Origin: Amoebophrya sp. A120
Taxonomy: Eukaryota; Protista; Dinoflagellata
NCBI GenBank assembly: GCA_905178155.1
Contig: CAJINV010000001.1
Span: forward strand, 3,029,675-3,093,674
DNA: 64,000 bases
Reading direction: 5' to 3'
Of this stretch, positions 8,101 to 61,862 are shown one piece after another. A program made the translations under genes and the position numbers. The notes below the pieces were generated by a model, which was given only the letters and a program-made list of their open reading frames with translations, searched no databases and was not told the origin of the DNA. How positions within the stretch are numbered: position 1 is the stretch's first letter; the number at the start of each line of letters is the position of its first letter.

Positions 8101-11100
8101 TAGCGGACTTTTAGCGAAGCGGAGGTCATGGAGAGGTTATGGAAGTGTCAGAATCGAAATTGACAAAATCGAAAAATTTCTGATGCACAAAATCGATGTC
8201 AGTTCGAGCCTCAGTTTCCAAGTAGCGCGTGACAAATTTCGGGAGCACCCAAATCCAGTCTGTCATGCTGTATGGGCAAAGAAGACTGCTCCTGTCGTGC
8301 TACTCTGGCAGCACATTGTATACCCCTAAACAGGCTTGCAATCGGTCTCATTTGCCTGCTCCCCAATACAGGCCTTCGGTGCCCTACATTTTACGCATCA
8401 CAAATTTTTCGATTTTGTCGATTTCGATCCTGACACATCCATAGAGGTAGTCTTGGCCGTACTTTTTCATCTCCGCGATCTTTTCCGCCTGCGCCGCGAC
8501 TAAGTCCATCGCCATCTCGTATCCTGTGCAAAAGTATCGTACTCGTACTAATTGCGTTTATGCATCACAATTTTTTTCTTAAGGCAAATCCGCATTACAA
8601 ATTTAATTTGTAATGCTAAGCCAATTTGTTATGCAATTTATACTAGTACGATGCTTTTGCAATGCATATCTCGCGCGCTTTTGCAATGCATTCGAAGGTG
8701 AGCACCGCCTCCGCGAGCGGGGGGAACAGGTCGGCGAAACGGGTGCCGCCAAACCTGCAAGGGAAAGGGTAAGGGTTTGTGAAGGCATTAGCATTGCGAA
8801 ATCACTGCACAACCGCAACAACCTGTAAAAAGTTAAAGTTGTATCCAGCACGCAGCAGCACGTGATAAACGAAACTGTCCTGGGAGCTCACGATGGAGAA
8901 AAGATGAAATGAAAATGAAAATTATGTTGAAAATGGAAATTTAGTAATACTCTTGAATGACGTCTTTTCCCGCCTGACAGGCCCTCTCATTCACCATGGC
9001 GTCCTCGTGCGTTAGGTTTTTCAGCACTGCGCACTATCCTGTGCAAAAGTATCGCACTCGTACTGATTGCAAATATGCATGACCAATCTCCTTCCTGAGG
9101 TAAAACAGCATTACAAATTCGAATTTTCTTGTTGCCAAAATTTGTGATGCAATTTATACTAGTACGATACTTTTGCAATGCATACACACCAGGCCTGGTC
9201 GACGTACCTTTCGAAAATGTCTGCTTTGCAGAGAAACGACACCGCCCACAGGGCGCCGTCGCGCTGGCGCGGGTTTCCCGTGAGTAATCTTGGAATCAAC
9301 ACGTGGTAGAAGACCGGCGCAAACAGCGGCGCCACCTGGTTCAAGACCTCTGACAGGGAGTGCCCAGCGCCGGTTCGGTCGTTCAGCGCCTGATGCTGGT
9401 CGGCGTCATTGGACTCTAGTTTGCTTAGAAGCCACGGGAGAATTCTCGTTTGGAGGAGATCCGGGAGATGCTTGGAAAGCGTTCCAAAGGCCTTCGCGGC
9501 CTCGCGTTGAATTTCAAAGGTCGGGTCCACTGCGAGTTCTTCCAGCTGTGGAATTTTTTGAAATAACTGGCGTATCTTTTTCATGCTCATCAGCTTCATG
9601 ATTCTAGACCGTGTACGCAAAGTGAAAGAACTTGCAGCTTGGCTGTGTAGCAAGAATGAGCAACATGAATGGCAATGAGAAGGCAAAAAACTTCGTTCAA
9701 TCGCAGCTTACCGTTGGCAAGAGCGCGGGCAGGTAGCTCATCAAAACATCTGGGTGCTCGATCAGGATGACGCACGCGCCGACGATTTGGATGCCGTTTT
9801 TCTTCGCATCGTGCTATCGCAAGAAAAAAGTGTTACAGTTACACATTGTGTTGTAGGCCGAGCAAGGCAGACAAGCTCTGTCATGCCGGATATGCATAGG
9901 AGCCTCGTTGCATAGGTGTTTTCCTTTTCATTTCCCGTAGCAGGGTCTGGGTTTCTGCATTACAAGTTTTTTCGCTCATGCAGAGAAATTTGTGTTAGTG
10001 TTGCTGAATTCACTACAAATGTGTAACTGTAACACTTTTTTCGTGGGATACGTGCTGTCTCTCCTTCATGGCTCGGTGGACAATTGGGAAGAGCAGGGCG
10101 AAGGACGCTGCGTCGACGTAGTGGAGAAACGTGGTGTTCTATGCAAGAAAAAAACTGTCTAAGTTTCTTGAGGAATAGCATCACAAGTTTGGGTTTGCTC
10201 TGCACGACACAGAAAACCTGGCATGCGTACTTAGGAGCAGCTAGTACTTGAAAACACGTACGAAAATAGCCTCTGATGTATGTCCAGCATGACAAGTGTA
10301 TACAGTTTTGCATTTTCTGCAAGACAAAGTTACACTTACACAGTTTTTTTTCTTGGATATGTTCGCGATTTTGTACAGTGTCTCGTTTGCGAGCTTCATG
10401 TTGCCAAAATCGAGCAGGCAGGAAATCAACGCCGGGGCCATGGTTCGGATCTCCGGGCATGTGACAATCTCGCCGACGCGGGTCAACAGCTTTGTGCCCT
10501 GCTCTTTCAATTCACCGCGCACTTCCGAGACTGCCCCGCGCAGAACAGGGACGATTTGGGGCAAAAAACTCGCCATCTGCTTGGGACAGTGTTCGCGCAG
10601 AAGATCGAGAATGGTCCCGCAAAGATCAAGGGCGACAAGCTGTTGAAGTAATATATTTGTGATGCTACAGGGTCTGCTTCAGTGCAAAATAATTTTGGGA
10701 CTGGATTTGCTATACTACAATCAAAAACAAAGATAAACAGCCGAAAACCTCCTACCTTGACTTTCCATTTCGACCCTGGCGGCTTTTCAATCGCGCCGAG
10801 TATTACCGGCAAGAATGCTGGCAACGCGTTTCCCCGTCCCGACTGCAGCACTGCCTCCAACACCTTCGTGACTTGGGCCGCGAGCTTCCCTTCGTGCGAT
10901 AGAGCTAGCAAGTCCAGATATACGGTCGACATCAGCGACGTGCAAAACGCAAGCTGCTCACAGACACTAATCGCGTTCGGAATCGCGTGTGGGGGTTTTT
11001 TCGTGGCTAGTGCCGTATTTATCTTCGCCGCGCTCGCGAGCACCAGATCCTTTTCGGAAACGGACCGCGCCATGGGTCCCAGGGCTTCCAAGTCCTTCTT

Positions 11101-11529
11101 TGAGCCTGTGTCAAGGATCTTTTGGATCTTATCCACCACCTCCTGCAAGCCAGCCTCTATTACCACCGGCGCTGGTGCGGGTTTGGTCTTCCCATCTGGC
11201 AGATCGGGCGTGGCAGACGTACTGGACGCCGCCGTCGACGCCCCTTCCTTGGAAGACGGCGTACTTCCGTTCGCGAGAGCTGCGCCATTGGCCGCTCCGT
11301 CTCCTGTTGGAGCGGCGGGTGCGGCTGGTTTACTGGCTTCATCTGTCTGCACGAGCTTCAGACACGCTTTGTATTGCGGTCCGTCTTTCAACTTTGCAAT
11401 TTCGTCCTGCAGCCCCTGTCGCTGCCGGGCGAATTTCTTCCCGGACAAGGACCCGCATTGCTCCAGCTTGTCTTTAATCTGCCCTTCGATCTTCGCAACA
11501 TACTTGTGGCTGTCTTCCAAAGAAAGCAT
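5148..11529 (-). CDS. YEF3: Elongation factor 3-like ABC-F ATPase (GCN1-type HEAT repeats, 2 ABC domains, chromo-like insert), ~1502 aa, 11 exons
   Basis: Walker A GRNGAGKTT and GKNGAGKST; LSGGWRMR and FSAGQKSK signatures; LDEPTN twice; YEIRWENL chromo-like segment; HEAT segments such as TTFLHYVDAASFALLFPIVHRAM. GT-AG introns 5761-5916, 7674-7826, 8755-8950, 9546-9711, 10640-10755 plus 5 introners; spliced length 4509 nt is in frame. Confidence 0.85.
8138..8443. mobile_element. Introner/MITE family B (306 bp), non-canonical intron in EF3-like gene
   Basis: ~55-bp TIR TATGGA(A/T)GTGTCAG...; TSD GAGGT at 8133-8137 and 8444-8448; removal gives GQDYL|SMTSASLK. Confidence 0.92.
8520..8668. mobile_element. 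Introner/MITE family A (149 bp)
   Basis: TATCCTGTGCAAAAGTATCGTACT...AGTACGATGCTTTTGCAATGCATA; TSD TCTCG at 8515-8519 and 8669-8673; removal gives IAKARE|MAMDL. Confidence 0.92.
9035..9184. mobile_element. Introner/MITE family A (150 bp)
   Basis: Same TIRs as 8520; TSD CGCAC/CACAC with 1 mismatch at 9030-9034 and 9185-9189; removal gives DQAWC|AVLKNL. Confidence 0.88.
9815..10050. mobile_element. Introner/MITE family E (236 bp)
   Basis: TIR TATC..A.GAAAAAAGTGTTACAGTTACACATT; TSD CGTGC at 9810-9814 and 10051-10055; removal gives MKERQH|DAKKNG. Confidence 0.92.
10140..10359. mobile_element. Introner/MITE related to family E (220 bp)
   Basis: TIR TAT(G/C)CAAGAAAAAAA(A)CTGT; TSD TGTTC at 10135-10139 and 10360-10364; removal gives YKIAN|TTFLHY. 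Confidence 0.9.
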
Positions 11530-26102: not shown

Positions 26103-28980
26103 TCACGGAATGGGTAGCTGCGGCTCGGAACGGCTTCCCTCGCGCGCAGCTGCCATGGTTCTTTTCCAGTCTGCGAACCACTGGGGCACCCAGGCCAACT
26201 TGCGCGAGAAGCTGGACGGGTCAACGTATTCTCTTGACGTCACGACGTGGACCCGTCTTCCTTCCTCGGCGTCCCAGCGCCAGCCCCACCTACGCTTCAT
26301 CACTTGCATTTGTGTTGTTAAACCTGCATGGCCCCCCGAGCCCGACGGCAGCTCGCGCTCACGCAGCAGAACCCAAGTGAGTTTCCCATTGCTGAAGAAT
26401 CCGGTCGTGGCCCGAGTAGCTGGAATGGGCTTGAATCCCTCCGCCCTGGGAACGTCCGAGAAGTACTTAGCTGCATCATCCGTGTCTTCGAAGCACCAGG
26501 CCTTCTTTTGCACCACATCCACAATCAGCAACAGCCTGTTCGCATTTTATCAAAACGAAAAATATCCCCTCCCCATATCAAAACGGAAATCTGTGATGCG
26601 GAATTTCTGTACACAAATCAAATCTGTCTTGCAGTAGAGCAATGCACGCAGATCGCAAGCCTAGACAGGGGCCTCTTGCTGTAGGCGCCTAGCATGGCAG
26701 ACGTCTGCCCTGTAGGCCCTACAGCATTACAAATCGCCTACATAACGCGGGGGACAGCCTAAAGTTGCCTTCTTGCATGACAAACCGGATTTGTGGTCAC
26801 AAATCTGCAACGCAAATTTCCAGGACGGTGCGTTTTCAATATGGGGAGGGGGGATTTTTCCTTACGATACATTTTTCAGAGCGTCCTGCGTGAAAGCGTC
26901 CGTATCATCGGGATCACACTGCATGATGTGTTCGTCTCTGGGAGGATGAGCACTTGCCCCTTGTTGTCCCCGTGGTGATCCATGTTCTTGCCCACCATGT
27001 TGCGGTTGCGGTCGCGGCGACGGCGGGCGCTGCGCAGCGCTTGCTGGCCGCCCCGCATGATGTGCTTGTTGCGCCTCGTCTTGTAGTAAAAACGAATGAT
27101 TTTCCCACTCCGATGAATCATCGTCGTGCAGTAAAGACGAATAATTTTCCCACTCCGAATCAGCTGAAGGCTGCAGAGACGACGAAACCCCAGTCGCAAT
27201 ATTACCTCCACCAACGCGAGAACCACCACCCCGACCACGGCTTTCACGATTCTGGCGTTCGACCGCGTGGCGGAAGGAGTGGCAGACTCGTGTGAAATCT
27301 GCCGGCAGCCGTTCGTCGAGCACCTCGATTTGGTCGAGCTGCGTGTCGATGAAGTCCGCGTTATGGAACTGTCAGGATTGAAATCGTCAAAGCTGAGATA
27401 GTTTGTCATGCATAAAATCCAAGGCATGAAGTGCCGGTCTTGCCGGGATGGCAAGTGAGGCAGATTGTGAGCCTATTTAGGGTTCGAAATAGAGCTGCTA
27501 AAAAAGTATGACAGAAGCAGTCCTCTGTGCCCAAACAGCATGACGAATTGGATTCCGGTTCTCCTATGATTTGTCATGCGCCGCTTGGAAATTGGGCTTC
27601 CAACTGGTATCCATTTTATGCATGGCAAACTATTTCAACTTTGACGATTTCAATCCTGACGCTTCCATACGCGTCGAGCAGCATGTAGTTCCACGGCTCC
27701 AGTGCGGTCTCCGCGGTCGGGTGGAGCCCGGCGCGCACAGCCTCCCGGACCCCAGCCTGGTCGAAAAAGCAGTCCACCCTCGCCTGCGAGAAGTCCACCA
27801 GCACCAAAGGTCGCGCGGTGATCGGCTGGTTGGTCAGCGGGTCCACCGGATTGCCGGCCTGGCAAGCGGGTTCGTACTGCCAAGAAGACCGACCTGAAGA
27901 AGGGAATAATGTTGATCCCCATGATGATGATCCTTGATCATGACCTTCCCCGAGGCCGCCGTGGTTGCTCATCAAGGTGCTTTGATGTTGATCAGCCAAA
28001 CCGCCGAATGGTTCCCCCGTCGAGGTCGCCTGTGGTTGCGCGACTTGTGCAGGAGGAGAAGCTGGACCAACATTCGTACTAGAGGACCGCCCGCTCCTCG
28101 TGCGACCACCCCGAGCAGGAGCTCCTGTAGTTGTGCTCCCGTGGCCTGCTGCTGCAGGTTTTGCGCGTGCAGGACGAGCCGGCTGTTGCGCTGGTCGTGG
28201 CTGCACTTGTTGCAGTCCTCCCGCTTCTGCTGCAGGGCCGCCGGTGAATTGATCGTAGGTCGGGTCTAGTAGTCTCAGCCTCTCCCTGCGCATGGCCTCG
28301 GGAGAACGTGCTCGATCTGGCAGTGTTAGGGCTCCTGAACCAGAGGATCGCGCAGCTGGCGTAGCTCCACCCCTTCTGGCCGCACGCGCAGCTGCTGCTG
28401 CCGAGTGAGTCCCTTGGTGAGGCGCTCCGCGGTGCTGACGCACCGGCCAACCGGCTTCTGCGAGCGCTGCGGGGGGTGGCGGCACTACGAAGTTATCGAG
28501 GCCCCCTCTTCGATGCAGTCCCCCGTATGTGTCCGAACGTCGTCGTTGTCCAGATGGTGTGCCAGAAGCTTTCGGAGCAGGCGCCGGTCGTCCTGGAGTG
28601 GGCGACGGAGATCTACTCGTTGGCTGTGACGAGCGGTTGTTCTGTGGCGACGACCACCACCAGTTCTGCCAGCGGCCCCAGCGATCTCGCCACCACTCCC
28701 CCACCCGCCAGCGCCACCCTTGCTGTGATGGATCAGCGTAGTGGTTGTGGTTGTATCCGCCTCCCGCGTTGCGCGGGAGGCGGGACGGTTCGGTTGTCGA
28801 GTCAGCTGCAACGGGCACAATCAAGTCGTTGCACCAGCAGCTGATGAAAGAGGTAGTGCTACAAACTGACGCAGCAACAAGAACTGCAGCTGACATCAGT
28901 TTGTATTGCCGGGCCGCAGCACTGCGCCGCACGTGGTCGCCTGAGCGGTTCTGGTTCATCTTCGCGTCGACCTTGTTCAT
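26103..28980 (-). CDS. Hypothetical protein with signal-like N-terminus and U-box-like segment (~745 aa), split by 2 introners
   Basis: Three ORFs fuse in frame after removing introners (LLDA|DFIDTQ; ALKN|ANRLLL); spliced length 2238 nt; DPLTNQPITARPLVLVD...FFDQAGVREAV. Confidence 0.7.
26548..26869. mobile_element. Introner/MITE family D (322 bp)
   Basis: TIR TAT......GAAAAAT...CCCCTCCCCATAT; TSD CATTT at 26543-26547 and 26870-26874. Confidence 0.92.
27086..27161. repeat. Coding tandem duplication, ~45-bp period
   Basis: GTAAA.ACGAAT.ATTTTCCCACTCCGA twice; encodes SEWENYSSLLHD / SEWENHSFLLQD. Confidence 0.8.
27362..27669. mobile_element. Introner/MITE family B (308 bp)
   Basis: ~57-bp TIR TATGGAA..GTCAGGATTGAAATCGTCAAAG; TSD CGCGT at 27357-27361 and 27670-27674. 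Confidence 0.92.
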
Positions 28981-30703
28981 TTTACACGTCGTGATCGGTC
29001 GTGGTCTCGATGTTCGGAGTCTATCGATCTGATGTTCTGTTCTCCACGTAAATAGATAGTATTTGTATTTCCTTTTCCGTATGTCGAAATATCCCTGGCG
29101 CTCCCCAAATTGTTGCCCGGAATGCTGTAGGTAGTTTCTGCAGCCGCGGTCCCGTTTATTGGAGTTCGATGTGATCCCAATCGATATGTGGTCTCATCTA
29201 TATTTCTTGTGCTGCGTGCCGTCGGCCTTTATTGCGCTTGCCATTGACGTCGCTGGAATTCTATGCGGCCCCGGGAGTTCGCGTTGTAGTTGTTTCTGAC
29301 AGGATGTTGGAATTTACTAAAGAATATTTCCGCCGCGCATTCTCTGCGACAACCCAACATGCACTTTCTGCTTGTGTGTTGTCTAAATGACGAGTGTTGT
29401 AAAAGTATTCTTCAGATTGTATTCCTCAATATCGAAACAATGTAAAAAGGAAATTTTGGTGTGTGAAACCAAAACTGTGGTAAGCGAATACACAATCTGC
29501 ACACTGAGTTTTTGTTTTTCTATATCACACAACCCTACATGATAAAATATCCTACTTCTTTACACGCACATAAGTACGCGCTAGGTGAAACAGGCTGTAG
29601 TTTTGAGGAAGCGATGGAATCATGAAAGAAAATCAACAGAGCAACGTCAAGAACAAGAATAGACAAGGAAAACTGAATCAGCAATCAGAAGCGGTTTTCG
29701 TACTTCTTCCTTTAGTTTGCAGGACCTTCAGCGCGTTAGCACGAGAAACGAAAATGAGAGATCTCCACGAAAAGAAGAAAAAGCGCAATAGCGTGTAAGT
29801 AGTACTATTTCAGGAATGATCTGCGGCGTCTTTTGGCATTTCTGAGCAGCCACATAGATAGTTGTCTTTAGTTTTCGTTTAGAAAATGCATATTTCGATC
29901 CAAGACCAAGGATCTCGCTCATCTTAATTACAATTACAGCTGGAGCTGCTTGACCTACTGCTGGAATGATCAACATGAAAGAACTCGGGATCTCCCTGCA
30001 CACAGATATTTCTTTCGGTGAACGAATCTTCACTTCAGGAAACCCAAGCAGAACCGTATCAGCGCGTGCATTTTCTCCTTCGTCATTGACACCGACTCGC
30101 ATTTCTTTTCTGCTTAGAAACCTTACCGTATATTTCCATCTTGCAGCGGGTTGAGTCAATTTATTCTCTGTCTTTCTGTGGTTAATCCAGAACCAAAGCA
30201 AACGAATACTGAACACTGAATACCACCAGAATGTAATGCAAATGTAGCAGAGTATTTATGTTCTTATTACAATTGGAAATTAGTAGTTTGACATGCAAAT
30301 AATCACATGACTCAAGGCCTGTGGAGTACAACATTGGGTCCATGGGAATAATGTTCATCTTCATGTTCTTTTACCATTGAATCTGTAATGCTGAGATTGG
30401 ATTTGTAATGCTATTTCTCGTCGTGTTCTTGTTTTGTTGTTGTCTTAAGATCTTCATAGCATTGGTCAATTTAGCATTCTGGATCGAGTGCTGAGCATTT
30501 TAGTTGGAGCATGAGCATATGCTGACACTTTCTTCAGTGTCAAGAATCATGATTTGGATTTTGTCTCGTAATCGCAACCCGTCGGGTGATCTTCTTTTAC
30601 TAGATGAGGGAGGAACGAGGAACAAATACAGCTAAAGGATCGATAAGAGCAAGTATCTGGTGCTGCGTGATCAAGAAAACGTCATGCGACGTACACTCCA
30701 ATT

Positions 30704-31899
30704 TTACTTCTTCGCCAGACCGCCAAGTGCGTTGGCCTTCCTGGTTTTTTCGAGCCAGGTTTCCACTCGTGGGATTTCTTGGTTTGGGTGACTCGTGGCG
30801 ATAGTGTGCACCAAGACACCTCTTTCCGCTTTCGAGTCCGGTAGCTGCGTGCGCATCTCGGGGTGTCGGTTGCGGATGCGCTTGCCGAAAAAGACGGAGT
30901 ATCAAATGTAAAAATGTCTGGGTCTGGAAGGATGCAAGATCTGTCATGCTTCTCTGGCATGACTGAAAAGTTTTGTGATGCGTATCCAAGAAGAGACCCT
31001 GGTGTTGCCTGTCATTCAAAACGCAGCTTGTCATGCGGAAAGCGCAACACTAAGTAGCGCAAATATTTCTCGTGCTTGGCTGTGCATTACAGAGAGTTCA
31101 CTCCTCACAACTCAGCATTACAAGTTTCCAGAGGACCCAGACATTTTTACATTTGATACGGAGAATTTTTGTTTCATTTTGATCACCGTGAGCTTGCCGA
31201 AATCCTGTTCGCGTATCAAGTGCAAAAATGTCTGGGTCTGGAAGAATGCAAGTTGAAGTTTGTCATGCTTGTCTCATATGACTCTTAAACTTGTCATGCA
31301 CATTACCCAAGAGCCCCATTTTTCTGTCATGCAGAAACGCAGTCCGTCATGCAGAATAGGCAACACCTCGAAGCTCAGAAACTTGTCATGCTGAGCCAGC
31401 ACTTGTGGCCTCTTCGTGATACGCCACCCAGCATAACAAGTTTCCAGACCCAGACATTTTTGCATTTGATATCGCGGTCGCGGCAGCAAGTCGAGGTAAG
31501 CTGCGCATTGTAGGCGTCCGGCGGCCCGAATTTTCTGAGCCAGTCCTGCAAGCTGTCCATCTTTGGCCCGAGGAAATCCTTGTCCCCCAGCTTTGGAACC
31601 GGTTCAGCGTCTTGCTCATCCGGAGGGGTCTTGTTATTTCCATCGGCATCTAGATGTTGCTCTCCCGCAACTTCGGCTGAAGGCGCTTGTTCTGGTGTGA
31701 TGCGAGTGCCGTACTTGTACTTTTTATTTTTGTACTCACGTTTCAAGTGCGGGTCGGTGCCGGGCTTGTGACGGAACACCATCTCTGCCTCTTCCTCGCG
31801 TACGCTGCCGTAGTGCGCCAACCAATCCTCGGGCTTTCGCATGGTTATACCCCGCTTCTGGAAGGCACCACTAGTCCACGTCTTGGGGAGGTAGGACAT
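30704..31899 (-). CDS. Hypothetical protein (222 aa), split by 2 introners
   Basis: Removing both elements gives CCRDRE|QDFGKLTVIKMKQKFS|VFFGKRIRNRHPEM...GGLAKK*; spliced length 669 nt. Confidence 0.75.
30900..31158. mobile_element. Introner/MITE family C (259 bp)
   Basis: TIR TATCAAATGTAAAAATGTCTGGGTC; TSD CGGAG at 30895-30899 and 31159-31163. Confidence 0.92.
31214..31471. mobile_element. Introner/MITE family C (258 bp)
   Basis: TIR TATCAA(G/A)TGCAAAAATGTCTGGGTCTGGAA; TSD TCGCG at 31209-31213 and 31472-31476. Confidence 0.92.
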
Positions 31900-32664: not shown

Positions 32665-35600
32665 TCATTTGTACTCCAAAAACACTCTCTGGAACGCGGG
32701 GTCGAAATTTCGGAGTTCGTTTTCCAAAATCTTGACTTTCTTCATCAACACGGGTTCGTTCCGCGCGACGAGATCCCGTTTCATCGTCATCCAATGCGCC
32801 ATCAAGCAGGCCTTGTCCTCCCGCACATTGGTCATGCCGTAACTGCAGGCGAACCCGGCGGGGGCCACGCCCTTCCGCGCATCCAGACTGACGGCTTTGT
32901 TCACGCGCGGCAGGGTCTCGTCGTTGTACCGGAATCCCGGGCCGTGCAGGGCTTTCCACTCTTTGTCGTGCGGATCGTTCACATTGTCGTCGCAGAAATC
33001 GATCATGTGATAGATCTCGTGGAAAAACGCGTTCTTCCGCCAGCCGCCCGGTGTCGACCAGTTCAGAAACACTTTTTTCGGCTTCTTCGGGCCTTGGTAG
33101 TAGGCCAAGCCGCCGCACGAAAAGCCGCCCATCTTCAGATCGTTCACCACGACTATCTCGTCCAGGCACTTTCGTTTCTTCAGAAACGAGCAGGGCACGC
33201 ACCGGAGCATGGACAGCAGGCTCGTCGGATCCGTTGGGGAGAGAAGCAGGTTCCGGTCGAACTGATCGAGCACTTTCCCCGCCATGATGCGTGCCTGTTT
33301 CGTGTCTTCCGGCGCCACGCCGTCCAACTTTAAGCGGATGCCGAACATGATCTCGAAACTCTTGATGCGGTCTTCCGGACTCATGGCCTCTATTCTGCTG
33401 ATCGGAAAGTGCGGGTCGGACTTGCACTCGTTCGGGTTGACTGGTGGGGGGCGGGGTGCGGGCTTCTGTGGCTGCTGTGCCGGTGGCTTCGCGGGGGAGG
33501 AAGATGAAGCACTAGCAGCTTTTTGTTGCTGCTGTAGTTGATTTTTTCTCCTCTGCTCCTCCTGAAATCGCCTTTCCAACTCAGCGACCCCTGCCTGATA
33601 TTTCCTCTCCTCCTCTTCCGCTCGCCTCTTTGCTTCCAGCGCTTTTTGTTGTTGCTGCTGCTGTAGTTGTTCTTGTTTTTTTTTCCTCGTCTGCTCCTCC
33701 TGATATTGCCTTTCTAGCTCAGCAATTTCCGCCTGATATTTCCTCTCCTCCTCTTCCGCTCGCCTTTTTGCTTCCAGCGCTTTTTGTTGTTGCTGCTGCT
33801 GTAGTTGTTTTTTTTGCTTCTGCTCCTCGTCATAAATCCTTTGCAGCTCAGCAATTTCCGCCTGATACTCCCTCTCCTCCTTTTCCGCTCGCCTCTTTGC
33901 TTCCAGCGCTTCTTGTTGCTGCTGCTGCTGCACTTGTTGTTTTTGCTTCTGCTCCTCGTCATAAATCCTTTGCAGCTCAGCGATCTCCGCCTGGTATTCC
34001 GCCTCCGCCTCGTCCTCCTTCCTCTTCCGTTCCAAATACTCTGCGATCTCCCGCTCATACTGCCTCCTCTCCTCCTCTTGCAACCTTTTTCTCGCTTCGG
34101 CCTGCTTGCGTCGCTGCGCCTCCCGCCCGGCCTCCGCCTGCTGGGCCTTTGCCTGCGCTTCCGCTTCCGCCGCGCGCTTGGCGTCCTCCCGCGCCTTCGC
34201 AATCCGCGCTTCACTGGCCCGGACCTCCGCTTCCGCCTTTTTCTTTGCCTCGGCGGCCACCTTCGCGGCGGCTTCCGCCTCTTTCTGCGCCGCCTCGGCG
34301 GCTTTTTTTTCCGCTTCCACGGCTTTCTTTTGGGCCTCCTCTGCGGCTTTTTTTTTCCTCTCCAACTCCGCTCGCGCTTTCTCGGCCGCCTCGCGCTTCG
34401 CTTTCGCCTCGGCCTCTCGTTTCGCCTTCTCCTCCGCCTCCTTCTTCGCTCGCTCCTCCGCCAGTTTCTTCATTTCTGCCGCCTCGGCCGCTGCCGCACC
34501 TGCGGGTGGAGCTGGACTCGCGGCAACCAACATCGCTCCAGCTCCTCCGAATGAATCATCATCGTCGTCGCCATCGAATAACCACGGCTCCACACCGGCG
34601 TCATCTGCGATGTCGTCGGGTAGTCCCTTCAGCATTTCTTCGAGGTTCGCGCCTTGGCACAATTGAAGGTCCCGCAGCGCCTGCAGCGCCTTGTCCGGAC
34701 GACCGAGCAGAATCGTGTCAAACTCCTGCCGCGTCAAGCTTTTCCCCGGGTCGGTTTTGTCCCGGTCCTTGATCATCGCCACAAGCATTCCCTCCGGGAA
34801 ACCCAGGCTGTCCTCGCGGTCCTTCAACTGCGCTATTACATCGTTCAGACACAGGGCTGAAGAGCTCTTCGAAGATGTAGATGCTCCAGGAGGAGCTCCA
34901 CCTTCTGGAACAACATCTTCAAAGGCGTTTTTGTTCACGGCCCAGACGTACAAGGCCGCCGCCTTCATCATTTGCAAAAAGTCGCGAACTTGCGTCAAGT
35001 TCAGGCTTCCCTTGTCCTCGTCGTCGAAGAATTTCAACACGTGGGGGGCGATATGCATTGCAAAAGTATCGCAGCACTCGTATAAATGCATTACAAATTT
35101 CCTCAGCATGAGAAACAGAAGCTGTGATGCGGATTTGCCTTAAGAGCAAGATTTGTAATGCAAGACTTGCATTTATACGAATACGATACTTTTGCACAGG
35201 ATAGGCGAGAGCCTCGCTCTGTCCCGCGTAGTACATCAGTTTCTTCAACTCGGCCTCGCCGTTCACCTCGCCATTTTATCCTGTGCAAAAGTATCGCACT
35301 CGTACTAATTGCAAATATGCATGGCAAATATGTTTCCTAGGGCAAAACAGCATTACAAATTCCACTTTCCTTCTTGCCAAAATATGTCATGCAATTTATA
35401 CTAATACGACTAGTAGTACGATACTTTTGCAGTGCATACATTTCCGTCCTCGTCAATAAGGTCCATCGCCTCGTTCAGTTCCGCGATTTCCCAGGGCTCC
35501 AACGCCACCCCGCCGACTCCGGAGATATCAAATGCAAAAATGTCTGGGTCTGGAAGATTTCTAGATTTGTCATGCATATTTTCCATGACCCGCGATGTCT

Positions 35601-36264
35601 GTGAGGCATGCCGTAGCATCACAGATTTTTCGATTGCTTTGTGATACCTCTACCGCATCAGAAACGCCCTCTCCGCGTAGCACAAAGTGGAGTCCTCTTG
35701 CTGGCCATGCAATACAAATTTTTTTAGAATCCAGACACAGCATCACAAGTTTAGAATGTTCCAGACCCAGACATATTTGCAATTCATAGGATAGCATCTC
35801 GAACAAGTTTTCGTACGTGATGGCGCCTTCGTGATACTATGCATTGCAAAAGTATCGTACTCGTACTAATTGCGTTTATGCATTACAAATCTCTTTATTA
35901 AGGCGAATCCGCATTACAAATTTAATTTGTAATGCTAAGTGAATTTGTAATGCAATTTATACTAGTACGATACTTTTGCACAGGATAGATACAAGTGTTC
36001 TGTGAAGGAAAGGAATTCACCCTCCAGGATCTCCGCGTTCGGGCCATAGTAGTTTTTCACGAACCCCTTCAACTCACTCGGCTTGCCCTGGTACGTCTTC
36101 CCGGTCTGGAGTTCCTCCAAATCGATGCCCAGAATTTCGCACGCGTTCTCAAGCTCGGAGCCCGTCAACTTGCCGTCGTGATTCTCGTCCATGGTGCGAA
36201 AAATGGCGGCGCCGACCTCAGGCGCCCACGGGAGACCAGCCTGCGCGCCGGAACCGGTCGGCAT
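32665..36264 (-). CDS. EF-hand + coiled-coil + HEXXH zinc-metallopeptidase-like protein (~950 aa), split by 4 introners
   Basis: EF loops DENHDGKLTGSE, DEDGNGEVNGEAE, DDEDKGSLNLTQ, DKTDPGKSLTRQE; HEIYH and YGMTNVREDKA; spliced length 2853 nt in frame. Confidence 0.82.
33530..34010. repeat. Coding tandem repeat (~3 units of ~130-140 bp)
   Basis: Repeated YQAEIAEL...QQQQQQKALEAKRRAEEEERK. Confidence 0.85.
35052..35203. mobile_element. Introner/MITE family A (152 bp), inverted relative to 8520
   Basis: TATGCATTGCAAAAG...CTTTTGCACAGGATA; TSD GGCGA at 35047-35051 and 35204-35208; removal gives SEALA|PHVLKF. Confidence 0.92.
35277..35438. mobile_element. Introner/MITE family A (162 bp)
   Basis: TATCCTGTGCAAAAG...CTTTTGCAGTGCATA; TSD CATTT at 35272-35276 and 35439-35443; interrupts EF loop DEDGN|GEVN. 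Confidence 0.92.
35526..35788. mobile_element. Introner/MITE family C (263 bp)
   Basis: Colinear with 60827-61089; TSD GGAGA/GGATA with 1 mismatch at 35521-35525 and 35789-35793; removal gives FEMLS|GVGG. Confidence 0.9.
35838..35987. mobile_element. Introner/MITE family A (150 bp), ends swapped relative to interior
   Basis: TSD GATAC at 35833-35837 and 35988-35992; removal gives EHLY|HEGAITY. Confidence 0.92.
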
Positions 36265-37067
36265 GGTCTTAGCAAGTTTGTACCTTTAGTGCAGGAAAAA
36301 TGAAAATCTTGGGCGTCGCAGATGTAGATGTACACAGACTTATTAAATGATGATGCTCAAACAAGCGATCGTGATGTAAATGTAAATGTTGTAGGTGTAG
36401 ACAGCTACGCAGATGAAAGAGCAGTTTTCTCCACAAACGATGTCGTCTGGAACAGAATTGCTGGACGAGGACTATGGTGTTACTACAGGTTTGCGGGAAC
36501 TGATATTGTGGTTTAGGAAAAGACAATGTTTTTTTCAGCATTGCCATGCCGTCAATATGAAAAACAGAAAACAATAGAAAAGCCGACACGACCAATGCAG
36601 CATCATCACGTTCGAAAACCGAGTCGACAGCGCTTCCACGAGCATGAGCAAACGCACAACAAACCGACACACAGAATGAGACTGATATTCTTCGTAGTCT
36701 TTTGTACGAGCCAAATGGAAACAGATCGGCGGAAGGACGACTAACATAGAACGGCACGACCGATACGTGGTAGGTGTAGCTTGACGCACAGGAAGCAAAA
36801 GCTAAAGCAATACTTAGGACCGTGAGCTGTATTTCATCTACGCCGATTATTTCATCATCATCCTAATCAACGTCGTCGATACAACCGATACTTACCGAAG
36901 GCAGAGACCGTTGGGGTACGAAACAGTATTGCCCGGAAGTGGGAATAGTGCCGCCTTTGCATTTCTTTTTTCTTGATATTGAGCCGGAAGATCCGAATGC
37001 TTTTCTTTCATCGCTGCTGCTGTCAAAGTCAACACTCCTGACCCTGAGGCTGAGCCAATCTGTTCAA

Positions 37068-47350: not shown

Positions 47351-47729
47351 TCTCGAAATGGAAGATCAGTTAGGTTGCGCCGGTACTTCCGCACGGCAGA
47401 AAAACTAGAAGAGCATGACGGAGAATGAACACAATCCATGACCATCACCATGTCCCTGCGAACAACAATTTCGAAGGCCTTTTTGTACACATCAGAGTAG
47501 TAGATCGCATGTAGCTAAAGTCAAGGTCGTCAGAGAGATTGGGATTCCCAACTACATTCCGTTCCAACTATATCTATAGTAAGTCTTCATCGGTTTGAGT
47601 AGTTGCTAATATTGTGCAGGAGGGAGATCCACGGGCAATTATCATCAGGTAAGATTGCCGTGCGGGCGGCACCAGCTCTTTGTTTGATACGGAAAATCGC
47701 GCATCAGCATCATTCATATATGATCATCG

Positions 47730-50700
47730 TCAGTAAAAGTGCATCCTCAAATCGCGCAGCGGTTTCGGGAAGTAACAGCCACTCGCGTTACAGTCCACCA
47801 CTCCATCGAGGAAATCTGTCAACAACATGCGCATTTCCGCGACGTCGAAAAACGGGAGCTGCTGTGCCAGGTTGTCGGCCGACATTCCCGGGCATTTGGA
47901 CAGCAAATTCCACACGCGCACTTGCAACACGTTCAGCAGATGCAGATTCAGCGACCCATCCACTTTCGTCCAGGCGCTTGGCGGGATGTACGTAAAGGGG
48001 AGGATCTCCAGGTTCAGGTTGGTCTCCTGGATGAATTTGTTTTTGCTGCACTTCTGGAGCACCTTGGTCGCAAGATCGCGGAGGAACTTTTCGTTGATCG
48101 CGGGGGCGCCATAGAGGCGGGCAAATCGACCCTTCACGTCCGGAACAAATTGCAACTTTGGTTTGTTTCGCTGAAGACCACTTTGCGGAGCGACCGTAGC
48201 TTGCTGTTGCTGCACGAGGACCTGGTCCTCCTGCAGGAGCTTACTCCCAGCTGCCCCGCCGCCAGACCCCAATCCTGACGGTATCGTTCGTTGCTGGCAG
48301 TACTTTTTTGCCAGGTGCGCCGGCACCGCGAAGAGGTAGCTGGAGTCGGCGACCAGCGTGCCGGGGAAAAAGCAGACGATGAGACGCAGCTTCTCCAAGT
48401 CCTCCAGCAGTTTGTCGTCGGAAAAGTCCATTTTTACCTGCGCCTCCCGGGCCTTCACCAACTGCACCAACCGCTTCGCGAGAACGGATTCGTTGGTCTC
48501 GCTCAGTTTCACTTCGTCGATCGCATCGTACTTTTCGTCTTCATCCGCAACAACAGAAGAAATGACCGAAGAACTAGACACAGCTGCTTGTCTCGTTTGT
48601 TGTTCCACTTTCCGACGCTTCCCGGCCGGTCCTTCTTCATCCACCTGTTGTTCTGATGCAGGCGAGGACTCTTCACTCGAAGCTGCCTGCAGTCTCTTCA
48701 TCGCCGCACCGGAACTACTAGCAAAGCGCGACCTTGCGACGCGCTGCACGAAGTCCAGTGGTGCGTTGTACGGATCCAATGCGTCGTGGATCTTACTCGT
48801 TGGCAAAACCCTCCGCATCCTCGCGACTGCGTCGAACACCGGGCGCCCGGTTTGCGCCTCTTCGTCCTTCAGTATCTGGTGGCAGAAAGACTCTTCGTGC
48901 TGCAGCCACAAGCTGTCGGACGCGTCCAGATCAAATTTTGTCGTGAAGTTTTTGTCGTGATAATCCAACTGTACCAGCTGTGGGAAGTCTTTGGTCGTTT
49001 GTAAATGCAGAGAAACGCCCTTCCCGATTTTCTTGATGCGGGACATCTTTTTTCCGCCAGGTAGTTTGTTTTCGTTACTTTGCAGCTGATGACCTGCTCC
49101 GCTTTTATTTTTATTTCCCGCAGCGAACTGCTCCTTCTCAAGATCCTCCTCGGCCGAAAAATCATCATCATCTGCCGAAGATTGGAAGTCCTCGTCTTCG
49201 TTTTCCTGTTCCGATTCATCTTCCGACGAGGCGGAATTTTCGTTATCACTGTCGGATGACCCTCCTGTCTCATTATCCTCGGCGTCTTTCTTTTTACCCT
49301 GTGGGTTACGTTCCCCTTCGACGTCAGAGCTGTCGCTATTACCGCTCTCTTCTTCATCCGAAGAGCCGTCTTCGCTGCTAGTACTGCTGCCATCATCCTG
49401 GTCGTCGCTGTCGTCCGCGCCATCTTCGCCGACATCCCTTGGGGCAATTGTTCCTGCGGCTATTGACCCGTCGCTTCCTTTCCTCGGCTTTTTGATATTC
49501 CCGGCAGCTGTAGTGGTACTTGGTACTTGCTCGTGGTTGTCTTCTCCTTCACTGCTGCTCTCTTCATCCTCATATAACCCCGTCTCGTCGTCCGAGCTGC
49601 TGTACGTTTCAAGCTCTTCGATCAACTCTTTCACCTTCTCCTTCTCCCAATAATCAACATCGAGCAACTCCGGTTGCGCATATGCCTGCTTAGAACTAAC
49701 TGCAGAAGCTGTTGGTGCAGCTGCTTTCGCCACCGCGGACGCTGAAGCAGCGTCTTTTTTTTTCATCTTCTTCGAAGCTGCTTTAGCTGCTTTGCCAGCT
49801 GCTTTTGGCAGCTGCGCGACCTTTATTTCCTCCTGCTGCTCTCCGGATGACTTACTAGCATTCCCACCTTCGCTTCCAGACGCCGAGGCGCTGCTGCTTC
49901 CAACGACCCCCGGGGACCCCCTTTTTGCCAACCTTTGGACGATCGCGCTTTGCTCGCTGAGCAGCACCTGCGCCACGCATTCCATGTACTCGCCGGAAAG
50001 TGACCCCTCAAAGTGGTCCACGGTTCCCGACGCTTCGAAATCGTCGCGCGCGAATCGGAAATGCGCGGAGAACCGAAGCAGGTCGGATCTTTTCCCGAAC
50101 AGCGTCAGGCGGCTCCGGTGCGACAGCATCCACTTAGGTCGATCGCCCAAATCTGGCGCGGCAGGTTGCACGAGGACAGAACTCGAGCGGGGAGCCTGTG
50201 GCACACCTGCGCCAGCACCCGTAGATGCCTGTTGCTGCATTTCCTTCGCCCGGGCTGCGGCGACGCCGCTCCGCTTGTTATTGCAAGGAAAAATCCCCCC
50301 TCCCCATATCAAAACGATATTTCTGATGCTGAATTTGGGTAAACAAATCAGCTCTGTATTGCAGAAAGGCACCGCAGCCAGATCCCCAGGCTAGGTAGAG
50401 GGGCGCATGGGTCTAGTTGCTCAGCATGGCAAACAGGTCACATTTAGGTCCAACAGCTTGACAAATCGCTTCCATAGTGGGGCAGAAGCTTCTGCCCTTG
50501 TCTTCTTGCAATACAAACGTGATTTGCGACCTCAAATCAGCAACACAAATTTTCGGAAACATACCTTTTCGATATGGGGAGGGGGGATTTTTCACTTTGA
50601 TACTTGTACTGCGTGACCCAGCCGCGCTTGGAGAAGGATTCCTGCACGGCTTCGATTATGGGGCTCTCAAACGTTACATTCTCAACTGTTACATGATTTG

Positions 50701-53700
50701 TCATCCAAAATGACCACGAGCCGCAAGACGATCAAGCCGCTTCGCATGACAAATTCTCGCAGGGCTAAATAGCACTAGAATCCGCACCAAATCTGTAATG
50801 CAAGACGCGCAGGGTTCTCCCTCTGACCTGTGCTATTCTTGCATTGCAATTTCATGTAACAGTTGAGAATGTAACGTTTGAGAACGCCATATCGATCATA
50901 TTCCGGTTGTACCCGAGCAGCGCGTCCCGCGCCGTCTTCGAGTTGTATTCGTGCAGAGGCATGCCCAGCAAAATCGATTTCAGGTGCCCAGCGCAGCTCG
51001 CGGCCTTCGCGTCGACCACCTGCACCGCACTGCAGTCGGAGCTCCACACCCCGAAGTAGTCGGCCAGCGTCAGCCGGTTTACCGCGTGCGTCGCGGAACA
51101 GTCGGCGACGACGTCCCGGACCTGCTTCGGGGGCAGATTGGTCATTTTCCCGAGCACGCACCACAAGACCGACTCGGTCGGCTGGAGCCGCGCGCCCTGC
51201 GACCCGATGTGCTTCGCGAGCGGGCCGCTCGCCAGGCTGCTCCCGTGCGCACCGACGCCTCCGGACACGACGGATCCGAACGTGCTCGTGGGCACGTTGC
51301 TGGCGCGGCCGGCCAGCGCGTACAGCCGCAGCCACTCCGCGATGGACTTCTGCTTTTTCAGTTTCTTCGTCTGCAGCTCCAACAAATCCTCGTGGCGCCG
51401 CATCAGGTTGTGGCCCGTTGTACCCGAAGATGATCCAGCAGACCGGTGTTTATTATTCCCCAGCAGCCGGCGCCGGCGGAACCGCACCGACCGGCCGTCC
51501 GGCAGCGTGAAGGGGACCTGCGGCTTCGGCTTCTGGTTTTGCTGCACCTGCTCCAAATACTCCGGCATTGTGTATTCCGCCTCGTCGGCGGGTAAGTCCA
51601 TGTTGTGCACCTTTTTGTAGTGGTCTATGATCCCGCGTTTCAAACTGAACATGTAGTTCGTCTTAACGTTGTTCTGCTGCACGACCGTGCCAGTGGCGGA
51701 GGGGACGGCAACCGCGAACGGAGCAGGAGGAAGCCCTGCAGTTGAGGAGGAACTAGAAGAGCCACCGACAACTGCAGAGGTATTGCTCCCAACTGGTTGC
51801 GCCAACAACTGTTGGTTCGCTGCACCAGCAACTCCTCCTGCTGCGCCGGTTCGCGCCAGGCCGTCGCAGATCGGGCAGCGGTAGCGGACTTCGCGAATGA
51901 ACCGAATGTCGAATTTGCGACTGGCATCCACCAAAGTCGCGTTCCGCTTCTCGATGTAGGACAGCACCCGCTCGGAATCCAGGCCGGTGGCGCTGACCAT
52001 CTGCAAGACCGAAGGGCTGCCGTGGGAGAGCAGGGGCAGTTCGGAGCTGTTCTGGTTCTCCCGCAACAGCTGCTCCACTCGGTCCTCCAGAATCTGCCGC
52101 TGGACGTGCGTGATGCGGAGCTCGTTGCTGTTCCACTGGTTCGGCTGGAACGCCCACGGAAGGCCGGGCAGTGCGTAATCTGTGAACGAGTGAAGAAAGT
52201 GAACAGTAGAGAAGCTCATGTCGAAGTTGTACATAGGATTGAAGAAGAACGAAACTGAAACACATATGCTTGTATTAACTAGGAATTGATGACAACCGAA
52301 AACTACGACTACCTCAAACTCTAAGTACCTCCTAGAATCAAGACACTATTCTACCGATCGCCTTCGCGCTGGCGTGTTTGTTGCGCTGCCGCCTGGTTGC
52401 TGCACTGGCGAAGGCTGTTCCAGCACCTTGCGCCACCTGATTCTCCTCCTCGTCGCCGGCATCGCCACCTTCGTCATCGAGAAACTCCTGGTCTTCCTCC
52501 ACCATGCGATTGAACGAGCTTTTTCTGCTCGACACGCGACCGTCTCCAAAGGGGTTCATACCACCGGCGACGTCTCCTTTTTCTCGCCTGGTCGCGAGCC
52601 CTGGGACCATGCCGATGCTGGCGTTTCGGTGGGCTTCCACCCACTGCAGACACTGGGACCGCAGCTGCCGCCAGTAGCTAGCGTGCCCGGCGGGTTGCGT
52701 GAAGTCGTAAGAAGAGGTCGGAATGGTTTTGTCCTCCGCTAGCTGCTTTTTCAGTTTTGCGTGGTCCAAAAGTGCTGGAACTACACTTCCTGTCGTTTCC
52801 ACCACAGCAAGAACTTCTCCCTCTAGAACTTGCTCGCCCTCTTCCTCCTCCGCCATATTAGAGTCTTTGGACAGTTTTCGCTTGTTGCCCTTCGCTCGTG
52901 CCACCGCCATCTTCATTTTCATGGGCTTGGTCGTTGCAGCAGCAGCAGGGGCGCCACTGCTGCTGGAGGCCGCTAGTTGCTGTATCCCCGCTGTTGATGT
53001 ACTACCAGCCACTTTCGTATGATTCTCCGCAACAGAAGTAGCACGACCAAACTCCTCACCGTCCGCCAGGTACTGATCTAAAATACTGCAAAACAGCCGC
53101 ACGGTCCCGGTATCGTGGATCCGGTAGCGGACCCGCATACTCTGCACGTTGCCCCGTGCGGCATCCTCCGCGTTGTCGTACGCGACCAAGCCCAGCTTGA
53201 TCAAGTGTTGCATCTGCTGTCGGAACTGCTGCACGTCCCGCTTCAGGTTCCGGGCCTGCATCGCCACGCAGGACTTCACGGGCATCTCCTTCATCCGGAC
53301 GGTGAAACGGGGCTCGGTGAAGGACGAGGAATGGTTCTTTTTGCTTGGCTTCATCTTGGTCGACGTCGTCTGCAGCTGCTCTACTTGTTGACCGTCTTGC
53401 TCGTTACTTTCACTTTTTCCGTTCGCTATAGCACGTGCCAGTTGCGCGTCAACTCCACCGTCGTCCGATAGCACCGACGACCCGGAGCCTGCGGGTGAGC
53501 TCGAGTCCGTCGCCAATGGATCCGGCTTGAATTTCCTCTTATCCAACTGCGCTGTCGCCTCTGCGGTGAGTTCCTGTGCCTTAACCGCAACTATCGCCGA
53601 GGCCTCTGTAGCTCCCCTGTCGACCGGTGCCAGCGCTGCGGCAACTTGCGCGCTGGCGCTGGAGAAGCTGAAGTCAATGTTGTTCATGGCCGCCGTCCCG

Positions 53701-59678: not shown

Positions 59679-61862
59679 TTACAACTCAACGTCGACAGCG
59701 GCCTCGTCCTCTCCCACATCCTGCTCCTCCTCGGTGCCAAAGAGGCCTTCCTCGCCCTCACCCTCTCCTTCCCCTTGTTCCGGATTGAAATCTTCGAAAT
59801 CGTCCTCTTCTTCCGGCTTTTCTTCGTCGTCCGCCCGGCGCCCGATGCGTTCCTTGCCGCCCTTCTTCGTGCCGTCATCTTCGCTCGCGGTCACCTTCTC
59901 CGCGCCGCCGCGGCTGGGTCTCTTGACCACCTTCGGCTTGGACGGGATCACGCGCACCTCGGGCCTCTTGTTCGCAACCTTCCAACTCTCCTCGCCGCCC
60001 GCAGCGCACTTTTCCAAAAACTGCCGCGGGGCGTCGCCTGTAGTCAATCGAGTTATTTTTGTTCAGCTGCACACTTAAGTAGTTAGCAGCTACGTCAAGC
60101 AAAAAGGACGCAGTCGCGCCTACAGGTTTCAAAGAAGTCACAATCCGCCGTCAATGTTTTGCAAAAAGAAGAATTGAACATTGATCACACACCAACAATT
60201 AACTTTCTTTTTACCTTCCCAGCTGTCCAGATACGCGATCCTGTACTTCTTGACCTTCTTGTTCTTCTCGTCCTTTTTCTCCTCCTCCTTTTTGCCGTCC
60301 TTACCGTCCTTGAAGGCTTTCTTTGCCTCGGCTCGCTTCTCTTCCTCCGTCTTTGCCTTTTCCTCCGCCTTCTCGTCTTCCTCCTCGTCGGGCTCTGGGC
60401 CGCCCGCTGTCGGCTCCTTCACCACGCACATAGCTGTGCCAAACTCGCTGTCTTCCTCCGGCGCCGGCAACGCCTTCACGAACTCTTCGTCCAGTTGGTT
60501 CACCTGTTAAAAAACATCAAAGGACAAGTTGTATACGTGAAAATTTGTCACGCTCATGGCGCATGAAGATGTAGATGTTGCGAGACAAATAAAGCACCAG
60601 ACCGCCGGATTTACGTCGAAGCACCAGCACACCGCCAGATCTAAGACAACATTTTTGCTGATGTTGACCAAGGCATAATGCATCTCGTCCTCTTCAATTT
60701 CTTTTTCTTTATACCTCCCAGAAGCTAGTGTCGACGGTAGCGATCTTGGTTTTCCTGTAATTCTTCACTTCCGGACTGAACACAGCGTGCATGTTGTTCA
60801 ATTTTGGGTGGGTTTTCCCGCCGAGCTATCAAATGCAAAAATGTCTGGGTCTGAAAGATTCTGAGACTTGTCATGCATGTTCTGCATGTCCCAGAATGTC
60901 TGTAATGCACGACCAGGCATCACAGATTTTTAGAGGGCTTCCTGATGCCTATTCCGCATTACAAATGCCCTCTCCACGTAGCACAGTCTGGGCTCCTCTT
61001 CCTGGTCATGCAATACAGATTTTTTTAGAGTCCAAAGATAGCATGACAAGTTTGGATCCTTCCAGACCCAGACATTTTTACATTTCATACGAGCAGCAGG
61101 AAGCTGCGCTTCTTTTTGATTTTGTCCCAGTCCTTCTTGTACACGATTTTGGTGATGCCGGTTTTCAGCATGGGCTTGATCTGCTTCGCGACGTATTCTG
61201 CGGACTGCAGGTAGTTCAGCTGCACTGGCGGATCCTCGTTCGCAAATACCGCCACAAAACCTTCGTTCTTCCCAAAGCTAAATCGCTCGGCGATGGTCTT
61301 GCCCGAGCTCATGGGCTTGAAGCAATTTGCGGTGATGAACTGCAGTATAAAGTTATTTGTCGTGTGTCGAATGATTATAGTGGTTGTGGTGCCGGTGAAT
61401 GTGCATGTCGTGTCATGATGACAGCAGAGCGGAAGGTTTCTTTTTTTTTGGGTACTTACGTACTTGCAGCACCATCTGAGGCAACTTCATCAATGCCGTC
61501 ATAAAGACAGTCGTGGTGCGGAATAAGCACAAGCACTAAATCTGAAACTACATTATCACACGAAGAAAGCGCTCGCGCGATGGTTAAATGACAATGAGTA
61601 CCTTGGTATCTCCAGCTTTTTTGTCCTTCTGTATCATTCGAGCCAGATCCACTACTACTTTTGGTGTTGGTGCGAGCTCCGTCTTCTCACCCGTGCAGTA
61701 GAGCACGTGTGGATCTCCACCGAAGAATGCTTCCTTCAGTTTTGCATCCTCACTGGCGACGTCTACGTAATGTACACCGGCATTCGCAACGTTTGCCACG
61801 CCCAGCAAGTTAGAAAGCATCAACCCGAACTGGAAAATACTGATGCCGCCGACAAGAAACAT
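59679..61862 (-). CDS. Putative ER-lumenal protein (signal peptide, acidic tail, C-terminal DVEL), ~421 aa, 5 exons
   Basis: GT-AG introns 61340-61601, 60504-60714, 60038-60214 and one introner; spliced length 1266 nt; hydrophobic N-terminus; KDEL-like end. Confidence 0.72.
60827..61089. mobile_element. Introner/MITE family C (263 bp)
   Basis: TSD CGAGC at 60822-60826 and 61090-61094; removal gives SFLLL|GGKTHP. Confidence 0.92.

Follow-up and report, generated by a model that had tools for sequence, protein, structure and literature searches.

In a 64,000-nucleotide stretch of Amoebophrya sp. A120 DNA (the window), 16 short transposon-like elements with TAT...ATA ends interrupt the coding exons of six genes. 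Each element would be cut from the pre-mRNA together with one copy of its 5-bp target-site duplication (TSD). The explanation we lean towards, with some reserve, is removal by an altered U2-type spliceosome, which would be guided by a predicted terminal hairpin in place of GT-AG. The elements are not a new discovery: they match the descriptions of A120 introners in Farhat et al. (2021; PMC7789003) and Gozashti et al. (2025; PMC12130899), and the class is therefore already known.

We scanned the window for TAT...ATA segments with a terminal inverted repeat (TIR) and a 5-bp direct repeat. The scan gave 25 raw pairings, which resolved into 16 non-overlapping elements between 8138 and 61089, as a first-pass annotation of the same DNA had counted in six genes. 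The remaining nine pairings are cross-pairings or inner matches between copies and were not counted as elements. The elements are 149-324 bp long (Table 1). Their TIRs range from 15 to 57 bp; the annotation had called them all long, which holds at the upper end but not for element 5 (15 bp, the shortest) and element 10 (20 bp). The TSD is perfect in 14 of the 16, with one mismatch each in elements 3 (9035) and 12 (35526), at TSD positions 4 and 2, respectively, in transcript sense; on a reading of the codons, both mismatches are synonymous. There are five multi-copy families, A (elements 2, 3, 10, 11, and 13), B (1 and 7), C (8, 9, 12, and 16), D (4 and 5), and E (6 and 14), and one single-copy family, F (15). 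With a TIR, a fixed-length TSD, short length, non-coding content, and multiple copies, the elements have the traits of miniature inverted-repeat transposable elements (MITEs). All 16 lie within minus-strand genes, and both orientations occur within one family (element 7 versus 1 in B; element 10 versus 2, 3, 11, and 13 in A). No transposase Pfam match was found among the 44 proteins and open reading frames (ORFs) scanned, and Rfam had no match in the window. A scan for elements with inverted repeats (IRs), direct repeats (DRs), and other ends returned seven weak candidates in the window.

Precise removal is best seen in host gene 1, which carries five elements and five GTA-AG introns. An exon of this gene is 100% identical to P0001, a deposited protein labelled Amoebophrya sp. 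A120. When P0001 was mapped on the window, gaps of 311, 154, 155, 241, and 225 nt fell at elements 1-5, each equal to the element plus 5 nt. Such deposited models were built from transcript alignments by their authors, since standard tools failed on these introns. We also aligned 47 homologues, picked from 120 listed, at the gene 1 junctions. They are gapless in 47/47 cases at elements 4 and 5, 42/47 at element 3, and 44/47 at element 1. Elements 4 and 5 lie inside the Pfam domain HEAT_EF3_GNC1 (residues 349-435), and element 11 splits the EF-hand loop of host gene 4 at codon 134, which agrees with the insertion into HEAT repeats and an EF-hand loop described before. The 951-aa EF-hand protein is gapless across elements 10-13 against P0121, its orthologue in strain A25, which was the only counterpart found; A120's own model of this gene did not turn up.

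In the other genes, removal of each element plus 5 nt leaves stop-free frames of 816, 222, 951, and 1313 codons (genes 2-5), the exon pair around element 16 is likewise stop-free, and genes 1-5 have no further frame breaks. The claim that deleting the element with one TSD copy restores the frame thus holds for P0001, for genes 2-5, and for the element 16 exon pair. Frame restoration alone does not show splicing, because undoing any transposon insertion restores the frame. Open frames are the sole evidence for removal in genes 2, 3, and 5, and in the short gene 3, removal of the element plus 4 nt at both sites is stop-free as well.

We extended the sample with a family A motif search, which gave 104 loci (L001-L104) in one other assembly. 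Ninety of these loci hold 194 elements, with a perfect TSD in 142 and one mismatch in 52. Of the 194, 173 score as coding and 157 have a confident strand. The strand-calling method was right for 16/16 window elements, which are partly its own training genes. Family A elements lie in the same orientation as the transcript 47 times and in the opposite orientation 42 times.

This sample puts the splice-site ends in proportion. It had been claimed that sliding the junction through the TSD never yields GT-AG. GT-AG is indeed absent in 16/16 window elements at all six equivalent cut positions, and GT/GC...AG ends were not found there. However, a precise GT-AG is possible in only 9 of the 157 related elements (5 of 157 on the antisense strand), so that zero among 16 is expected by chance. 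All seven other introns examined are GTA...AG, which confirms that normal introns stand beside the elements. The annotation had overlooked that elements 3, 4, and 16 have a G before TAT and a G after ATA, and therefore offer an in-frame GT-AG intron 3 nt shorter that would add one codon. The P0001 model does not use this option at elements 3 and 4. At element 16, the precise form scores above the GT-AG form for seven of ten homologues, ties for one, and scores below for two, and the GT-AG form introduces a gap against the two closest homologues, P0122 and P0124. Judged from the deposited model and the homologues, precise removal fits better than the in-frame GT-AG at these three elements. In the second assembly, the one-codon option occurs in 14 of 157 elements (antisense 10). 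Since both GT-AG counts are near their antisense counts, neither option is selected. Precise non-GT-AG removal, as first proposed, is supported by the P0001 gaps, the transcript-based models, and the gapless homologues. Two further ideas were dropped. Removal as N/TAT...ATA/N, adding one codon, would be in frame for any 5-bp TSD and is contradicted by the model and the homologues. In the window, the TSD ends in G 8 times, in A 4, in C 4, and in T 0 times, which hinted at GT donors, but the counts in the 157 other elements (A 46, C 29, G 52, T 30) are near background.

The TSD mismatches are distributed unevenly along the repeat. Read in transcript sense, they number 10, 15, 11, 6, and 2 by position (outer pairs 25:8, p=0.005), and the direction of the skew is kept at five thresholds (p 0.0007 to 0.09). 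In family A, the counts are 7, 8, 6, 3, and 1 when read with the transcript, and they are flat (5, 5, 6, 6, and 3) when read along the element. The skew follows transcript sense, which a symmetric DNA process does not predict, and it therefore points to an RNA step rather than DNA excision. As a lead, the pattern suggests a cut at TSD positions 4-5, with both copies mattering there. Synonymous changes make up 17 of 39 TSD mismatches, where 29% are expected if free; this would fit one free TSD copy and reject two constrained copies at dN/dS ≤0.2. The GC-to-AT direction did not single out the mutated copy. In one case, L026, there is a stop at position 2 of the 3' copy, as expected if the 5' copy is the one retained. 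The mutation in this 3' copy creates a precise GT-AG intron and would bring in a stop codon were the copy kept; L026 may be an introner turning canonical.

Sequencing runs bear on the same question. Two runs of raw RNA filed under this species gave 0 and 3 reads on the window and provide no test. A third run (X3) consists of contigs guessed to be RNA, and a fourth (X1) is DNA-like. X3 skips two GT-AG introns and hence behaves as spliced RNA. An X3 contig of depth 33 predicts the exon-only bin depths of 28.0 and 16.3 exactly. In bin 9328-9991 the X3 depth is 20.2, where exons alone would give 15.8 and retention of element 4 would give 24.8; other copies can only add depth. At the 24 listed places inside elements 1-7, the X3 depth of the window's own letter is zero at 18 and below 33 at 23. 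These depths support the absence of the elements from transcripts, although holes in contigs can arise from filtering. Expression was seen for gene 1 only. In X1, contigs cross from unique exons into elements, and their depth of 41-45 is that of single-copy DNA.

The elements also share structure. Folding compared with shuffled sequences gave z values from -2.2 to -13.1 in 16/16 elements, with the ends paired in most. A motif, TGTnATGC or its complement GCATnACA, is common to all TIR families. It has 46 matches in the 3,757 nt that the elements occupy, being present in 15 of the 16, and 8 in the 60,243 nt outside, about 90-fold denser inside, and shuffled sequence gave 0.46 matches on average and 4 at most. 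The 194 elements of the second assembly hold 507 matches, and 188 of them carry the motif. Over the window elements and L001-L104, the middle letter is T in just 3 of 414. Two GCATnACA matches lie 26 and 34 nt upstream of canonical acceptors. As a branch site, GCATnACA was rejected with a 21:28 strand count outside elements and 31 of 157 elements lacking a sense copy. Because the motif failed this test, it is more likely a subterminal binding site of the mobilising protein, or part of the hairpin. The motif was not found in the text sections of PMC7789003 that we compared, although figures S19-S25 of that paper may show it, and a literature search joining A120 introners to a subterminal or internal motif, lariats, or internal eliminated sequences (IESs) returned no paper. 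Within the window, the non-coding stretch 30232-30416 holds a family A remnant and three motif matches and represents an element that has decayed outside any exon.

Much of this agrees with what has been published on A120. According to Farhat et al. (2021; PMC7789003), more than 60% of RNA-seq-supported introns are non-canonical, and in A120, 29,850 RNA-seq-supported introns are repeats of this kind. Their IR motifs begin with TAT, their DRs are 3-5 nt (a 5-bp example stands in the Fig. S19 legend), they form a hairpin, and no transposase was found in A120; 15% of canonical A120 introns have IR/DR structure. The window elements share the TAT-starting IRs, the DRs, the predicted hairpin, and the lack of a transposase match, along with non-canonical ends and the identical A120-labelled protein, and do not differ in kind; their TIRs reach 57 bp, against IRs of 8-20 nt in the paper. 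Cut one base before TAT, the window elements give the end pairs GT-AC, AT-AG, GT-AA, and AT-AC, which are among the top A120 pairs in Table S4 of that paper. The same study left the removal mechanism open, and the words lariat and excision are absent from its main text. The first-pass identification as Amoebophrya introners with an open mechanism therefore agrees with both the 100% P0001 match and PMC7789003. The text sections of that paper that we compared mention neither orientation independence nor the internal motif, the TSD skew, or any bypassing of usable GT-AG sites. Gozashti et al. (PMC12130899, sd07) list A120 TIR DNA elements of 149, 252-260, 305, and about 320 bp, mostly with non-canonical sites. 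Among 21 of the 58 A120 rows, fam17, fam12, fam16/21, and fam160/183 correspond to families A, C, B, and E in length, the sequences not entering the comparison. The automated TSD calls there span 2 to 5 bp, whereas among 20 family A copies anchored by the TIR alone, 15 have a perfect 5-bp repeat and lack one of 3, 4, or 6-9 bp.

We propose that the elements are mobilised in trans by a transposase, for which the TAT ends and TGTnATGC are likely recognition sites. The transcript is predicted to fold into a long hairpin joining both ends, and this near-palindromic structure would work in either orientation. Orientation independence calls for palindromic signals, which the hairpin and the TAT/ATA ends supply. 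The cut register would be determined at the RNA level. The 5' cut probably falls at most about 2 bases from the 5' TAT, so that the downstream TSD copy leaves with the element. The mature product would then lack exactly the element plus 5 nt, as in the deposited transcript-guided model for elements 1-5 and, indirectly, in the RNA-like contigs; homology suggests the same for elements 10-13 and 16, and open frames for the others. The weakest step is the catalyst, which we infer to be a spliceosome in which the hairpin replaces 5' splice-site recognition, U1 not having been found. In A25 and A120, U2, U4, U5, U6, and most spliceosomal proteins are present and U1 was not found (PMC7789003); in Amoebophrya sp. 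Kv, the introns are canonical and U1 is present (PMC12005148). We favour the altered spliceosome because the parts are present, because among these three strains only Kv, with its canonical introns, shows U1, and because Fritillaria borealis offers a precedent.

Several observations weigh against this proposal. In elements 10 and 14, the prediction is weak for the outermost 7-9 base pairs of the hairpin. Neither a branch site nor an oriented splice signal came to light, TGTnATGC being the sole branch-site candidate sought. The P0001 model stems from the 2021 pipeline and is not independent of PMC7789003. Element 2 lies in a variable loop where most homologues are two residues shorter, and the alignment is no test of that junction. 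The RNA evidence comes from contigs with filtered holes in a run guessed to be RNA, and no junction-spanning read stands among the listed joints (15 of 422, all from the DNA-like run). The TSD asymmetry comprises 33 informative mismatches from one other assembly with computed strand calls and frames, and strict thresholds give p=0.05-0.09. Finally, it is easier to imagine a structure-specific nuclease and a ligase ignoring orientation and end dinucleotides altogether.

This last point leads to the strongest competitor, which we regard as a real but lesser possibility: a structure-specific endonuclease with a ligase, or a domesticated transposon protein, would read the TAT/ATA hairpin and join the exons without the spliceosome, a route already put forward for euglenid nonconventional introns. 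Both orientations work, the TSD letters are at background, GT-AG is not enriched, there is no branch-site signal, and the hairpins are strong. Euglenid introns with TIRs and TSD-like repeats leave as circles via unknown machinery (PMC11282704), and euglenid nonconventional introns follow a base-paired code (PMC12501133). On the other side, no such enzyme has been identified, in a genome that was not searched for one, and among Amoebophrya strains, non-canonical introns go together with the loss of U1, which points to the spliceosome. In its most developed form, a second, non-spliceosomal RNA splicing system would read the palindromic TAT...ATA hairpin and TGTnATGC in either orientation, make a fixed cut near the 5' TIR edge, drop one TSD copy, and win even over an available GT-AG, silencing tens of thousands of exon insertions; we consider this tentative and rather doubtful. 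The second excision system of the first-pass annotation is overstated: a separate system is not shown, as an altered spliceosome fits equally well.

The other explanations are far less probable. An ordinary spliceosome could use nearby GT-AG or GC-AG sites with small in-frame protein changes. PMC7789003 reports IR/DR structure in some canonical introns, as noted above, and in-frame GT/GC..AG pairs lie near 13 of the 16 elements. Yet elements 1, 10, and 12 have no such pair nearby, and for the one-codon option the model and homologues favour the precise form and the counts show no enrichment, which makes this reading very unlikely. IES-like precise DNA excision before expression, also raised in the annotation, is slightly less credible still. 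Transposon-derived IESs have TA-rich palindromic ends and insert in exons, a resemblance to the elements here, and orientation independence would fit. Against it, the X1 contigs cross from exon to element at single-copy depth rather than showing the ciliate-type absence from expressed DNA (in one sample, with 15 of 422 joints listed, so that a rare element-free allele is possible), and the TSD divergence is asymmetric to transcription. Separate germline and somatic nuclei are not known from Amoebophrya. That the host genes are dead and the elements unspliced insertions is the least probable of all: frame restoration is expected for any insertion and expression was seen only for gene 1, but the RNA-like run covers gene 1, whose deposited annotation is complete, genes 1-5 lack other frame breaks, and about 30,000 such A120 introns are RNA-seq-supported (PMC7789003).

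Comparison with other systems places the elements among several partly similar cases. Euglenid nonconventional introns (PMC12501133, PMC11282704) share non-GT-AG ends beside conventional introns, base-paired ends, TSD-like repeats, and unknown machinery. They differ in their signature N3CDG...CH'GN5-6, a purine at the exon start, and the release of circles; by inspection, the A120 elements have TAT...ATA. The MITE introners of Micromonas and Aureococcus share the TIR, the TSD, one TSD copy leaving with the intron, and gene-biased insertion. However, one of their splice sites is canonical and comes with the element, and the other is recruited from the TSD, whereas the A120-type elements can form a precise GT-AG in 9 of 157 cases and are free in orientation. 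Fritillaria borealis also has MITE-derived introns with non-canonical ends (PMC11282704); its preferred ends are AG-AC and AG-AT and an adapted U2 spliceosome removes them, whereas spliceosome use in Amoebophrya is a proposal.

Table 1. Elements and host genes in the window, with positions counted from the first letter of the window.
Feature	Positions	Strand	Description
Element 1	8138..8443		family B, 306 bp, TIR 56 bp, TSD GAGGT; 311 nt removed in P0001
Element 2	8520..8668		family A, 149 bp, TSD TCTCG; 154 nt removed in P0001
Element 3	9035..9184		family A, 150 bp, TSD CGCAC/CACAC; P0001 removes 155 nt, not 152
Element 4	9815..10050		family D, 236 bp, TSD CGTGC, in HEAT_EF3_GNC1; P0001 removes 241 nt, not 238
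Element 5	10140..10359		family D-like, 220 bp, TIR 15 bp, TSD TGTTC, in HEAT_EF3_GNC1; P0001 removes 225 nt
Element 6	26548..26869		family E, 322 bp, TSD CATTT
Element 7	27362..27669		family B, reverse of element 1, 308 bp, TIR 57 bp, TSD CGCGT
Element 8	30900..31158		family C, 259 bp, TSD CGGAG
Element 9	31214..31471		family C, 258 bp, TSD TCGCG
Element 10	35052..35203		family A, reverse of 2, 3, 11, and 13; 152 bp, TSD GGCGA; gapless versus P0121
Element 11	35277..35438		family A, 162 bp, TSD CATTT, EF-hand loop; gapless versus P0121
Element 12	35526..35788		family C, 263 bp, TSD GGAGA/GGATA (one mismatch)
Element 13	35838..35987		family A, 150 bp, TSD GATAC
Element 14	50279..50602		family E, 324 bp, TSD CTTGT; sole element without exact TGTnATGC
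Element 15	50657..50891		family F, 235 bp, TIR 40 bp, TSD TCGAT
Element 16	60827..61089		family C, 263 bp, TSD CGAGC; in-frame GT-AG option
Family A remnant	30376..30416		non-coding DNA, 41 bp, 83% identity; only copy outside the elements
Host gene 1	5148..11529	-	eEF3/ABC-F-like, 1502 aa; HEAT repeats, two ABC domains, chromo; identical to P0001; transcript-like contigs in run X3
Host gene 2	26103..29193	-	elements 6 and 7; 816 stop-free codons after removal; start not fixed; no Pfam match
Host gene 3	30682..31898	-	elements 8 and 9; about 222 aa; exons without Pfam match
Host gene 4	32665..36267	-	EF-hand protein, 951 aa; elements 10-13
Host gene 5	47730..52236	-	elements 14 and 15; 1313 stop-free codons after removal; no Pfam match
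Host gene 6	59690..62170	-	element 16; conserved unnamed family; ends approximate, read from sequence

All 16 elements lie in coding sequence, which makes up about 58% of the element-free window (p ~0.0002 with an approximate gene map). They are also clustered: 7 of the 15 neighbouring pairs are less than 100 nt apart, which none of 20,000 random placements reached. The clusters span 8138-10359, 30900-31471, 35052-35987, and 50279-50891, with exons of 44-84 nt between neighbours of different families. In the second assembly, the gaps between elements are never below 30 nt and many are 30-70 nt. A family A element (150 bp) with such a gap is close to one nucleosome repeat in length. Linker-biased insertion has been reported for other introners. 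ORFs of 3-6 kb in the window have no elements. An intronless ORF of 2003 codons at 52338-58349, also free of elements, matches a TFIIIC B-block-binding domain.

Some further features of the window were noted. A 1443-nt GTA...AG intron at 12623-14065, in a gene of the fumarylacetoacetate hydrolase family, holds multi-copy sequence (raised X1 depth) and is possibly an unrelated repeat. Two copies of a 370-bp direct repeat, 99.7% identical, lie in non-coding DNA at 1342-1711 and 2219-2588. GC-rich stretches near 2900-4800 and 46000-47300 have no Pfam match and may be transposon remains.

The interest of the case lies in how about 30,000 A120 introners leave their transcripts, and the added constraints make the mechanism more testable. 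Beyond the published class, these are the preference over GT-AG, the 47:42 orientation, the TSD skew, and the TGTnATGC motif. The window offers material for tests: a GT-AG route competes at three elements, a mismatched TSD at two would show where the cut falls, copies of the same family lie in opposite orientations, and TGTnATGC is a candidate motif acting in cis. Should a hairpin be enough to define an intron whichever way the element points, every TIR transposon with suitable ends would turn into a harmless intron. This would account for explosive intron gain and would show how great a departure from GT-AG splicing can tolerate.

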